A stretch of 21,234 bases of DNA. Source: a virus (taxonomy: Duplodnaviria; Heunggongvirae; Uroviricota; Caudoviricetes). This document shows, piece after piece, positions 15,501 to 16,079 of the stretch (position 1 is its first letter; each line of letters opens with the position of its first letter). Location of the stretch: the IMG/VR virus record IMGVR_UViG_2537562190_000017; one strand, given 5' to 3'. A program made the position numbers and the translations under genes. The notes under the pieces were generated by a model. The model saw nothing but the letters and a program-made list of their open reading frames with translations, was not told where the DNA came from and searched no databases.

Positions 15501-15528
15501 AGAATACCTATAGGTAAACAAAAGTCAA
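15501..15528 (-). promoter_or_regulatory. Putative pR: -35 TTGACT, 16-nt spacer, -10 TATTCT (minus strand)
   Basis: Read on the minus strand: TTGACT tttgtttacctatagg TATTCT. An operator palindrome lies in the spacer. Confidence 0.45.
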
Positions 15529-15582
15529 TACCTTTGGGTTGTTTACCTTACGGTAATCACATCTATTATTTACCTATGGACA
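15505..15582. promoter_or_regulatory. Right operator: four TACC-N4-GGTA-type 12-bp palindromic sites
   Basis: TACCTATAGGTA (15505-15516, perfect), TACCTTTGGGTT (15529-15540), TACCTTACGGTA (15544-15555), TACCTATGGACA (15571-15582, overlaps the repressor ATG). Confidence 0.6.
15542..15569 (+). promoter_or_regulatory. Putative pRM with -10 TATTAT ending about 6 nt before the repressor ATG (leaderless or near-leaderless mRNA)
   Basis: TTTACC - 16 nt - TATTAT (15564-15569); no SD precedes ATG 15576. Confidence 0.35.
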
Positions 15583-15995
15583 AATATGAATTTAGACGAC
15601 AGCAGCTCATCAAAATTCGTGATGAGAAATGCGATGGTAAAGCGGTTAACGTAGCCAGAAAGATCGGTCGCGAGCCTTCTTATGTATCAAGAATGTTGTA
15701 CCCAGAGGGGAAAAAGGGAAAAAAACGGATCGCTGATGATATGGTGGAGATTATCGAAGAGTCCTTTGGGTTACCCCGAGGATGGATGGATGGTATCGTT
15801 TCATCATCAACGAACACAGCCTCCAATTATGAAACAAGGGTTCTAACGCCACGACAACGTATTTTTTTAGATCTCCTAGACGAGTTGCCAGAAAGTGAAG
15901 CGGATAACTTATTAAAAACTCTTGAAGAGAAAAAACAGTATTACAATATGATCTACGAAGAAATCCGTAAAAAGAAAGCACAAAACGCATCATAA
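15576..15995 (+). CDS. Prophage repressor (cI-functional analogue, RacR-like; HTH, no S24 peptidase domain)
   Basis: ATG at 15576 (track start 15534 is TTG); MDKYEFRRQQLIKIRDEKCDGKAVNVARKIGREPSYVSRML.... 139 aa (420 nt including stop), with no Ser-Lys autocleavage motif visible. Flanked on both sides by palindromic operators. Confidence 0.7.
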   Translation: MDKYEFRRQQLIKIRDEKCDGKAVNVARKIGREPSYVSRMLYPEGKKGKKRIADDMVEIIEESFGLPRGWMDGIVSSSTNTASNYETRVLTPRQRIFLDLLDELPESEADNLLKTLEEKKQYYNMIYEEIRKKKAQNAS

Positions 15996-16038
15996 CTCAC
16001 CAAACAACCAGTCACCAGTTAAGACACCTCAAAAAAGT

Positions 16039-16075
16039 TACCCATGGGTATTTACTTTTTAGATACCCGTGGGTA
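16039..16075. promoter_or_regulatory. Left operator: two 12-bp palindromic sites
   Basis: TACCCATGGGTA (16039-16050, perfect) and TACCCGTGGGTA (16064-16075), 25 bp centre to centre; same TACC-N4-GGTA half-site logic as the right operator. Confidence 0.55.
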
Positions 16076-16079
16076 TTCT
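16051..16079 (+). promoter_or_regulatory. Putative pL: -35 TTTACT, 17-nt spacer, -10 TATTCT
   Basis: The -10 element is identical to the putative pR -10 and is overlapped by the second OL site. Confidence 0.4.

Follow-up and report, generated by a model that had tools for sequence, protein, structure and literature searches.

Organization of the Predicted Immunity Region

The window, that is, the whole 21,234-nt stretch of DNA analysed here, carries a repressor gene on the plus strand (15576–15995; 139 aa plus stop codon) and, divergent from it, a Cro-like gene of the YdaS family on the minus strand (15194–15475; 93 aa; PF15943, E 9e-6, below the curated cut-off; phrog_35). Together with a YdaT/CII-like gene (14785–15210, minus strand; PF06254, E 8e-11; phrog_163) and replication genes, cro lies downstream of a predicted promoter, pR. 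Downstream of a second predicted promoter, pL, are DUF1391/ydfA, a DicF-like element, a DicB-like gene, an exonuclease gene, xis and int. The cro–ydaT junction contains TTGATTTTCATGAATCAA (15200–15217), an exact match to TTGATT-N6-AATCAA, the consensus footprinted for YdaT of CP-933P (PMC9986795).

The exact motif TACCNNNNGGTA occurs six times in the window, against 0.08 occurrences expected, and none of 100 shuffles reached six. Four of these sites fall in the immunity region, within about 570 bp and together with one site carrying a single mismatch; the 100 bp between repressor and cro hold three conserved sites and both promoters of the divergent genes, pR and pRM. The two matches elsewhere (4185 and 9885) were rejected as operators: their N4 cores are unlike YRYR, one lies inside an IS transposase gene, and 4185 is missing in a close relative. 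The arrangement is that of a lambdoid immunity region: repressor and cro diverge, copies of one palindromic operator cover two face-to-face promoters, and a second cluster with the same operator sequence (16039/16064) marks the predicted early-left promoter. We consider it likely from the sequence that this locus is the immunity switch of a lambdoid E. coli prophage, with TACC-N4-GGTA operators and a non-cleavable repressor. A first-pass annotation had already proposed an immunity region with divergent repressor and cro-like genes, which our analysis supports; overall, its observations were confirmed in part and its interpretation found partial support.

Conservation of the Predicted Operators Between Repressor and cro

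The related loci come from phages mEp043 and CharmingMan and from about ten genera; 21 related loci were scored, and 13 loci were aligned (alignment A5). Most related loci carry three sites, approximately 72, 47 and 32 bp before the repressor ATG. Nearly all columns that never vary across the 13 aligned loci belong to the TACC/GGTA half-sites, the pR −35 or the ATG; only two invariant columns lie elsewhere, and the pRM −10 (TA...T) comes close to invariance (at least 90%). This is strong comparative evidence for the palindromes as predicted operators.

OR1 (TACCTATAGGTA; 15505–15516) is an exact match that overlaps the pR −10. Its equivalent stands 71–75 bp 5′ of the ATG in all 21 related loci and is exact in 19, the other two, both from Arsenophonus, having one mismatch; half-site positions T30–C33 and G39–A41, numbered in the window row, are invariant in the alignment. 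OR2 (TACCTTTGGGTT; 15529–15540) has one mismatch, with a weak right half, and abuts the pR −35. Of the 21 relatives, 16 have a counterpart at −47 to −50, usually with GGTT as its right half, as here, and CAATACC is invariant in the alignment; judged by comparison with the related loci, this site is real. OR3 (TACCTTACGGTA; 15544–15555), an exact match overlapping the pRM −35, is represented at −32 to −35 in every related locus: 17 counterparts are exact, two from Arsenophonus have one mismatch and two from Klebsiella have two. Here TTTAC...GGTA is invariant in the alignment. The centre of OR2 lies at −41.5 relative to the repressor ATG and pRM start, and only 15 bp separate the centres of OR2 and OR3, so that their simultaneous occupancy and cooperativity are uncertain.

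The first-pass annotation had listed six operators, two of them perfect 12-bp palindromes, which are present as described. Five of the six stand, namely the exact sites at 15505, 15544, 16039 and 16064 and the conserved site at 15529. The remaining one, TACCTATGGACA (15571–15582), has two mismatches, lies over the repressor ATG and has no counterpart in any related locus compared. It is probably not an operator and is best read as a chance occurrence of TACCT followed by the coding ATG-GAC.

The Cro-like gene follows the operators across these loci. Sixteen of the 21 have a homolog (42–73% identity) facing away from the repressor, the exceptions being five Klebsiella loci without a Cro homolog; in this comparison, Cro is inherited together with the operators.

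Promoter Architecture and the Repressor Transcript

Sequence comparison supports pR, a leaderless pRM and pL as predicted promoters. On the minus strand, pR (15501–15528) consists of a −35 TTGACT (15528→15523), a 16-nt spacer and a −10 TATTCT (15506→15501). Its layout is repeated in the relatives, where the −35 adjoins OR2 and the −10 begins in the TA of OR1. The opposing pRM (15542–15569, plus strand) has a −35 TTTACC, a 16-nt spacer and a −10 TATTAT, and both promoters were called by an independent consensus scan.

Because transcription from pRM is predicted to begin at the A of the ATG (15576), the repressor mRNA is very probably leaderless. As the earlier annotation had described, TATTAT lies 6 nt 5′ of the ATG and a Shine–Dalgarno sequence is absent; its proposal of a leaderless message gains further support from the related loci, since 12 of the 13 aligned have TAnnnT 6–7 nt before the ATG and no Shine–Dalgarno sequence. 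Leaderless repressor genes have precedents in lambda cI and CP-933P paaR2 (PMC8630535). A TTG start at 15534, which would give a 153-aa ORF, was rejected: the N-terminus MDKYE is kept in all homologs, and the stretch upstream of it is operator DNA.

The OL Pair and the Predicted Early-Left Promoter

Two further exact matches, OL2 (distal; TACCCATGGGTA; 16039–16050) and OL1 (proximal; TACCCGTGGGTA; 16064–16075), lie beyond the repressor, with site starts 44 and 69 nt after the stop codon, in agreement with the pair placed there by the first-pass annotation. OL2 is directly upstream of the pL −35 and OL1 overlaps the pL −10. As read from the sequence, pL (16051–16079, plus strand) comprises a −35 TTTACT (16051–16056), a 17-nt spacer and a −10 TATTCT (16074–16079), the same hexamer as the pR −10, as previously noted. 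It matches the consensus at 8 of 12 positions and falls below the threshold of the consensus scanner. Site pairs spaced 24–26 bp occur downstream of the repressor operon in 19 of the 21 relatives, with the promoter hexamers in fixed register: a −35-like one after the distal site and a −10 starting at the TA of the proximal GGTA. In Yersinia, the OL pair stands before N-like genes.

The same two palindromes can fold as RNA (16039–16075, plus strand) into a hairpin of 16 pairs with UUCUUCCUUU after it, which might terminate transcription from pRM. With a folding energy of −24.9 kcal/mol (z −6.5), the hairpin was matched in stability by none of 200 shuffles, and a terminator is functionally needed between the immunity transcript and the early-left operon. 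The pair could therefore be primarily a Rho-independent terminator of the repressor transcript instead of operators of pL. Equivalent hairpins folded in 19 related loci argue against this: the pair is kept, but its fold is weak, ranging from −7 to −18 kcal/mol, the N4 cores show no covariation, and the T-rich tail is unconserved, whereas the TACC/GGTA half-sites and the flanking −35/−10 hexamers are conserved. In several loci, moreover, hundreds to thousands of bases separate the pair from the repressor upstream of it, and an N-like gene follows the pair immediately. A primarily terminator function is accordingly unlikely, and the preferred reading is that the pair comprises the pL operators; in the window, it may possibly act in both roles, as operator and as terminator.

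Domain Architecture of the 139-aa Repressor

The repressor consists of an HTH DNA-binding domain (residues 1–73; 15576–15794), a disordered linker (residues 77–87) and a DicA/GtgR-type helical C-terminal domain (residues 86–139; 15831–15992). It belongs to phrog_5736, "transcriptional regulator" (E 5e-70), while the RefSeq label for the same ORF is hypothetical protein. An AF2 model (pLDDT 86.7) is all-helical, with the HTH at residues 23–40 in an XRE/cI-type five-helix fold and a helical hairpin at 92–138. PDB sequence searches with the repressor and the family profile gave nothing significant, unlike a fold search, which did find the Rep protein of Salmonella phage SPC32H.

The first-pass annotation had stated that an S24/LexA-like autocleavage domain is absent, and this holds. 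The repressor has no match in Pfam even at E ≤ 1, PF00717 included, while the same search detects PF00717 (Peptidase_S24), at E 1e-17 to 6e-23, in four relatives that share its N-terminus. The AF2 model contains no beta structure, and the S24 domain, Ser–Lys dyad and Ala–Gly site of autocleaving repressors are all lacking. Since the protein has no S24 domain, RecA could not stimulate its cleavage, and derepression would have to use another route.

The C-terminal domain is homologous to that of DicA (hhalign probability 96%, E 1.7e-9; BLASTP E 1e-7) and to the LPExE-containing domain of the Gifsy repressor GtgR (hhalign 80%, E 1.4e-5); the match to NCBIfam PRK09706 is partial (E 2.5e-5, below the family cut-off). 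The repressor shares with this class a length of about 135–150 aa, an N-terminal HTH, the absence of a cleavage module and the C-terminal motif ...LLxLFxxLPExE.... These similarities support its assignment, by the C-terminal domain, to the DicA/Gifsy class, whose control by antirepressors has been shown experimentally.

Residues 1–73 are 70–85% identical to the N-termini of full-length S24 repressors of 221–242 aa, and the short protein might on this account be a truncated S24-type remnant instead of a functional two-domain repressor. We regard this as extremely improbable. Residues 86–139 are not S24-derived but share homology with the C-termini of DicA and GtgR; homologs of 51–58% overall identity (Serratia, Yersinia and others) retain them, and they are modelled as a confident helical hairpin. 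The 1.3-kb region with the repressor gene is also present, at a coverage of at least 80%, in 822 of 5426 complete E. coli genomes. A two-domain repressor of the DicA/Gifsy class is thus the reading adopted below.

Comparison with Known Immunity Systems

Qin of E. coli K-12 (DicA/DicC/dicBp) resembles the window in its divergent short repressor and Cro-like genes and in a second repressor-controlled promoter directly after the repressor gene, leading into ydfA(DUF1391)–dicF–dicB. In the window, DUF1391 is preceded by a leader with homology to that of the Qin dicB operon, and the window also carries a DicF-like element and a DicB-like ORF. DicA and the window repressor have homologous C-terminal domains, and both lack the Ala–Gly/S24 cleavage module. 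Their DNA-binding domains, in contrast, are unrelated in sequence, only the C-terminus aligning, and by our own reading of the sequence the Qin operators are TTAG-type palindromes in place of TACC-N4-GGTA. Qin also has Rem, of which the window has no homolog.

The repressors of Gifsy-1, -2 and -3 (GfoR, GtgR/GftR and GfhR) are likewise small (about 136 aa) and without a cleavage motif (PMC3121763). The Gifsy backbone is of the same type as that of the window, with an exoVIII-like gene, xis and int; DNA-binding domain and operators differ. The Gifsy antirepressors GfoA, GftA and GfhA are LexA-controlled (PMC3121763), whereas the window has neither the dinI–gftA–irsA SOS cassette nor a comparable LexA box.

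SPC32H Rep–Ant (PDB 5d50/5d4z) differs in that the TACC–GGTA sites, which we read as Rep operators, have an N5 spacer instead of N4. Rep is 198 aa long with a different C-terminal domain, and its 86-aa partner Ant has no homolog in the window. CP-933P of E. coli O157:H7 (PaaR2/YdaS/YdaT) has a right arm of the same kind, with a YdaS-type Cro and YdaT as the CII equivalent (PMC8630535, PMC9986795), and shares with the window the exact TTGATT-N6-AATCAA box at the ydaS/ydaT junction. Its repressor gene is leaderless as well, and its PL has the same −35/−10 as its PR (PMC8630535). PaaR2, however, heads a toxin–antitoxin operon, while the window repressor gene stands alone, and PaaR2 recognises different 18-bp repeats (consensus GTTTAGTAA).

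The DNA-binding domain finds its counterparts elsewhere, fused to S24 peptidase domains in phages with the same operators and Cro. The mEp043 cI, CharmingMan and the S24 repressors of Salmonella, Edwardsiella, Yersinia, Pantoea and Klebsiella share it at about 65–85% identity, and the recognition helix REPSYVSRMLY is nearly invariant between them and the window repressor. These loci also share the OR1/OR2/OR3 spacing, the OL pair and the leaderless-type pRM, and their Cro is of the same family except in the Klebsiella loci. Unlike in the window repressor, the C-terminal half is Peptidase_S24, and the mEp043-group repressors should therefore be RecA-inducible. Literature searches on the operator strings and mEp043 found no description of TACC-N4-GGTA operators, no operator characterisation for the mEp043-group loci and no binding experiment on the 139-aa repressor or a close homolog. 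The locus is an ordinary member of the DicA/Gifsy class whose operator specificity is previously undescribed.

Candidate Routes of Derepression

Repressors of this class are relieved without cleavage, DicA by Rem (PMC10448788) and the Gifsy repressors by GfoA/GftA (PMC3121763). The first-pass annotation had favoured an antirepressor over cleavage and pointed to an antirepressor-like gene at the left edge of the window. The first part agrees with the DicA/Gifsy class membership and the lack of an S24 domain; the assignment of that gene as the inducer does not hold up.

The gene (1–399, minus strand, ATG at 399) is the 5′ part of a bona fide P22_AR_N/Ant-type gene cut by the window edge (PF10547, E 5e-46; phrog_524, "anti-repressor Ant"). 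P22-type Ant proteins inactivate several repressors, and a terminator-like hairpin upstream of the gene (566–544) separates it from the lysis genes, so that it could have its own regulation. Because the gene is on the minus strand, its upstream region (400–673) is inside the window, contrary to the earlier statement that it lies outside. Neither a LexA box nor a promoter-like site was found in 400–673, although the scan, in which CTG-N10-CAG boxes were scored against a 20-mer consensus, recovers true control boxes (Gifsy-2 dinI at 11080 and SPC32H ant at 19956, each 17/20). No ant gene occupies that place in a close relative prophage whose immunity region is 98% identical, and the left-edge Ant has zero sequence similarity to the solved SPC32H Ant. 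In addition, Ant genes occur in 126 of 279 Stx phages, whose repressor families are largely S24/LexA-type (PMC8136144), and Ant is thus no marker of a non-cleavable repressor. That this gene is a dedicated SOS-controlled inducer of the prophage is therefore quite unlikely, and its link to the repressor is unsupported.

The wider search gave a similar picture. Neither the window nor the complete related prophage held a LexA box comparable to the controls, and none lay within 10 kb of the short-type repressor homologs in four Yersinia/Serratia loci; the scans turned up weak sites only. The best LexA-like site in the window scores 15/20, with CTGG replacing CTGT, and lies inside a methyltransferase CDS; the only exact CTGT-N8-ACAG (9310) is flanked by a hok gene and an IS transposase gene and fronts no candidate gene. 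By tblastn, the window contains no homologs of Rem, GftA, Gifsy DinI or SPC32H Ant, and an SOS cassette of the Gifsy type, with a LexA box, dinI and an antirepressor in the nin region, is absent. A 90-aa ORF at the rem position (8287–8556, minus strand) was rejected as an antirepressor, belonging to phrog_1212 and not to the families of Rem (phrog_340) or GftA (phrog_4847).

These negative findings are also what would be expected if the prophage had no dedicated inducer and were decaying, with the immunity module holding toxic early genes (dicB-like and others) stably silent and flipping only stochastically or under physical stress via the Cro-like protein, as reported for Qin dicBp. Roughly 1% of cells turn the latter on spontaneously, with neither RecA nor Rem required, and its response to urea and heat depends on DicC (PMC10448788). 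In the nin region, hok/sok is interrupted by an IS, so that the prophage may be partly defective, and in the close relative the portal, capsid and integrase genes are frameshifted. Against such decay, the replication, Q, lysis, xis and int ORFs of the window look intact, and the same short repressor type is also found in Yersinia and Serratia, in lambdoid prophages that appear complete. Antirepressors could also act in trans from other prophages, the search having covered one window. We therefore consider a purely silencing role doubtful, though not far-fetched. Derepression through an antirepressor, taken by itself, is somewhat better placed and quite possible, though short of probable; as no antirepressor candidate is tied to the repressor, the route is drawn by analogy and is not a finding.

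Proposed Mechanism

From the computed site positions, conservation, promoter geometry, domain architecture and homologies, we infer binding, activation from OR2, the preference of Cro and the route of induction as follows. The locus would form a lambda-type bistable switch in the style of Qin, Rac and Gifsy in an E. coli lambdoid prophage. The 139-aa repressor would bind 12-bp TACC-YRYR-GGTA palindromes via its N-terminal HTH and oligomerise through the DicA-type helical C-terminal domain. OR1, on the pR −10, and OR2, abutting the pR −35, would jointly silence the cro/ydaT/replication operon. Lambda CI activates pRM from the −41.5 position, and the geometry of OR2 suggests that it may do the same here; OR3, over the pRM −35, would serve to stop repressor synthesis once the repressor is abundant. 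Through the OL pair, which brackets the pL −35 and overlaps the −10, the repressor would keep an early-left operon of the dicBF type switched off, including its continuation into the exonuclease gene, xis and int. Presumably the YdaS-type Cro occupies the same operators, in reverse order. Derepression would most likely involve a small repressor-binding protein, encoded elsewhere in the prophage or by another prophage, by analogy with DicA/Rem and GtgR/GftA, or alternatively a stochastic, Cro-driven flip.

Exchange of Recognition and Sensor Modules

The analysis assigns a predicted function and operator sequence to a RefSeq "hypothetical" protein found in approximately 15% of complete E. coli genomes, whose DNA-binding domain has no Pfam model. 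The locus would add one further immunity specificity to the non-SOS-cleavable repressors of the DicA/Gifsy class, and EHEC/EPEC prophages of this type would not be expected to respond to DNA damage via repressor cleavage; current understanding is not overturned by it.

The comparison indicates that the DNA-recognition and induction-sensing halves of lambdoid repressors are exchanged as separate modules. An S24 sensor end occurs in mEp043 and many Salmonella, Edwardsiella and Pantoea prophages, and a DicA-type end in the window. We tentatively propose that one cassette, with the same Cro, operators and a near-identical recognition helix, circulates with interchangeable repressor sensor ends, S24 or DicA-type, and that cross-binding would give SOS-proof immunity. 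Should each repressor recognise the other's operators, the immunity that a resident short-repressor prophage confers against S24-type phages of the same specificity would be SOS-proof. The short repressor could then also keep a co-resident S24 prophage uninduced, as a natural trans-dominant "ind-minus" repressor, and the two would form a ready-made pair for studying the evolution of induction mode independently of immunity specificity. Among complete E. coli genomes, the short-repressor version is about 16 times commoner than the mEp043 version (822 vs. 52).

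Organization of the prophage and its immunity region

The window is a lambdoid E. coli prophage in which the repressor gene (15576-15995, plus strand) diverges from a YdaS-type cro gene (15194-15475, minus). Leftward, all on the minus strand, lie a YdaT/CII-like gene (14785-15210), O-like and DnaC-like replication genes and then nin-region genes; DUF968, RusA and Q, left of hok/IS; DNA methyltransferase and SASA esterase genes, left of Q; and lysis genes followed by an Ant-type gene interrupted by the left window edge. On the plus strand, the genes after the repressor are DUF1391/ydfA (16262-16414), a DicB-like ORF, an exoVIII-like exonuclease gene, xis and int. 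An IS with an rve-family transposase (9369-10415, plus) sits in the nin region between a hok-type toxin ORF (9145-9297, minus) and a sok/mok regulatory leader (10401-10568, minus; Rfam sok, 100.8 bits), so the hok/sok locus is disrupted. A full-length STnc100 sRNA match (4276-4476, minus; 148 bits) lies between the methyltransferase and esterase genes.

Predicted operators are conserved across related loci

Six exact copies of TACCNNNNGGTA are found in the 21 kb, where 0.08 would be expected, and four of them fall inside the immunity region, at 15505, 15544, 16039 and 16064. Re-reading of the sequence bore out every coordinate, palindrome, hexamer and distance in the first-pass annotation, whose two degenerate sites carry one mismatch (15529) and two mismatches (15571). 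The exact matches outside the region (4185-4196 and 9885-9896; two against about 0.08 expected) were rejected: their cores, ATGG and GCCC, depart from the operators' YRYR pattern, one match falls within the IS transposase gene and the other is missing from the close relative.

The decisive evidence that the sites are unlikely to be chance matches is comparative. Residues 1-73 of the repressor recur at 65-85% identity in many proteins, and we fetched 21 loci with a related repressor N-terminus: phages mEp043 and CharmingMan and chromosomal loci of Edwardsiella, Klebsiella, Brenneria, Pantoea, Leclercia, Yersinia, Atlantibacter, Arsenophonus and some MAGs. All 21 carry one site 71-75 bp upstream of the repressor ATG and another at -32 to -35, with single mismatches at both in two Arsenophonus loci (one with a truncated repressor gene) and two mismatches at the latter in two Klebsiella loci. 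The site at -47 to -50 is present in 16 of the 21, its right half being degenerate in nearly all (GGTT in most), and a pair 24-26 bp apart lies downstream of the repressor operon in 19. When the cro-repressor intergenic regions of 13 loci were aligned, the invariant columns were essentially the TACC/GGTA half-sites, a CAA corresponding to the pR -35 on the opposite strand, and the ATG; the pRM -10 TA...T was nearly invariant (at least 90%), only two other columns were invariant and the remainder varied. No related locus compared has an equivalent of the fourth intergenic site (15571). Six operators had been proposed; the predicted number is five, namely OR1 (15505-15516), OR2 (15529-15540), OR3 (15544-15555), OL2 (16039-16050) and OL1 (16064-16075).

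Klebsiella loci L007 and L010-L013, which encode 233-aa S24-type relatives, retain sites at OR1 and OR3, the latter degenerate in L007 and L012, and lack both OR2 and a divergent cro homolog, which points to a different regulatory layout around the same DNA-binding domain (DBD). In Yersinia (L029-L031) and Serratia (L032), which have short repressors, 1.4-3.9 kb separate the repressor from the OL pair downstream, which directly precedes an N-like gene. The intervening cargo, either a Bro-N protein or an AAA_15/AAA_21 ATPase with a DNA methylase, would be co-expressed with the repressor in lysogens and possibly represents defence genes.

Predicted promoters and the OL hairpin

An independent consensus scan placed pR at 15528->15501 (TTGACT-16-TATTCT) and pRM at 15542-15569 (TTTACC-16-TATTAT). 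OR1 overlaps the pR -10, OR2 abuts the pR -35 and OR3 covers the pRM -35; the OR2 centre would stand 41.5 bp before the predicted pRM start, as in lambda OR2. The lambda cI message is leaderless. Here, the 6-nt interval between the pRM -10 and the ATG, the absence of a Shine-Dalgarno sequence and a TAnnnT hexamer 6-7 nt before the ATG in 12 of 13 aligned loci make the prediction of a leaderless repressor message well supported. CP-933P paaR2 provides a further precedent (PMC8630535).

At pL, TTTACT directly follows the distal site OL2 and TATTCT is overlapped by the proximal site OL1; relatives keep this register, in which the distal site is followed by a -35-like hexamer and the -10 starts with the TA of GGTA. 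The leader ahead of DUF1391 is homologous to the Qin dicB-operon leader and is followed by a DicF-like RNA (16567-16615, plus; sub-threshold at 29 bits against a gathering score of 48, E 6e-4), the DicB-like ORF (16804-16992, plus) and a second small ORF (16989-17177, plus). The early-left operon is thus of the dicBF type, with the predicted pL as the counterpart of dicBp. A weak second STnc100 match (16617-16823, plus; 30.8 bits, below gathering) overlaps the start of the DicB-like ORF.

As RNA, the two OL palindromes also form a hairpin of 16 bp (-24.9 kcal/mol, z -6.5) with a T-rich tail behind it. Hairpin stability in relatives is low and varies, the N4 cores show no covariation and the tail is not conserved, which argues that the structure is a by-product of two similar palindromes. 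In this prophage it may have an added role as a terminator of the pRM transcript.

The repressor joins a DicA-type C-terminus to a different specificity module

The 139-aa repressor had no Pfam match even at E<=1, in a run that detected Peptidase_S24 in four relatives. Its AF2 model is all-helical (pLDDT 86.7), with a four-helix N-terminal domain containing an HTH (23-40), a disordered linker (77-87) and a helical hairpin (92-138). The C-terminal domain shares homology with DicA (BLASTP E 1e-7; hhalign 96%, E 1.7e-9) and Gifsy GtgR (E 1.4e-5), founders of a class of short non-cleavable repressors relieved by the antirepressors Rem and GfoA/GftA (PMC3121763, PMC10448788). On the class features that sequence can address, the repressor sorts with DicA/Gifsy and not with S24, in agreement with the first-pass view that it lacks an autocleavage domain.

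The immunity locus shares function and layout with Qin (DicA/DicC/dicBp), and its right arm is of the YdaS/YdaT type of CP-933P. Where ydaS meets ydaT, an exact TTGATT-N6-AATCAA palindrome (15200-15217) overlaps the start codon of ydaT and agrees with the high-affinity YdaT site footprinted in CP-933P (PMC9986795). Unlike in both prophages, the specificity module pairs a DBD that has no Pfam family with a TACC-N4-GGTA operator, of which our literature search found no description. The locus therefore appears to join the known DicA/Gifsy class with a different specificity module.

The same DBD and operators occur in other phages and prophages joined to at least three kinds of Peptidase_S24 C-termini (221-242 aa), while the DicA-type domain accompanies this DBD and these operators here and in Serratia, Yersinia and Arsenophonus. 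The module junction falls directly past the conserved GWMDGI (residue 74), and Cro travels with the DBD and operators at 42-73% identity, the Klebsiella loci excepted. Among 5426 complete E. coli genomes, the 1.3 kb around the immunity region is covered to at least 80% in 822 (identity up to 98%), with the short repressor annotated as 'hypothetical protein'; the mEp043 S24 version is found in 52. We regard the natural occurrence of a single immunity specificity with either of two induction domains as the most interesting aspect of the system.

Possible routes of induction

Repressor cleavage is excluded as far as the sequence can tell. By class analogy, we favour an antirepressor encoded elsewhere or acting in trans; no homologs of dinI, gftA, rem or SPC32H ant were found in the window. 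In second place, Cro may flip the switch stochastically or under stress, as at Qin dicBp.

The local Ant-type gene (1-399), proposed earlier as the inducer, is not supported in that role and ranks third. Among Stx phages taken together, Ant genes are frequent (126/279), and the repressor families of this set are largely S24/LexA-type (PMC8136144). The local gene is encoded on the minus strand from an ATG at 399, and its upstream region, previously placed outside the window, is actually inside it at 400-673. This interval holds a terminator-like hairpin after the lysis genes, with no promoter-like site and no LexA box, and ant is missing from a prophage whose immunity region is 98% identical.

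Our LexA scan recovered the Gifsy-2 and SPC32H control boxes at 17/20. For the window and the whole related prophage (L001 and L028), its highest-scoring site, at 15-16/20, carries CTGG and falls in the 5'-terminal part of the methyltransferase CDS; near the Yersinia and Serratia homologs (within 10 kb), no site reached 14/20. By the features of the Gifsy SOS cassette, this locus does not belong to that type. The LexA-like site AACTGGATATTCTTACAGTA (5587-5606, 15/20; 4834-4853 in L001, 16/20) sits within the DNA methyltransferase gene downstream of Q, 8 nt past its annotated start, and is the only one of its type in the whole related prophage. The sole exact CTGT-N8-ACAG of the window (9310-9325) is at the hok/IS junction.

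Salmonella phage SPC32H carries eleven TACC-N5-GGTA sites, with clusters on both sides of rep (33529-34420). One (20014) adjoins the LexA box of ant, which suggests that SPC32H Rep may also touch the ant promoter.
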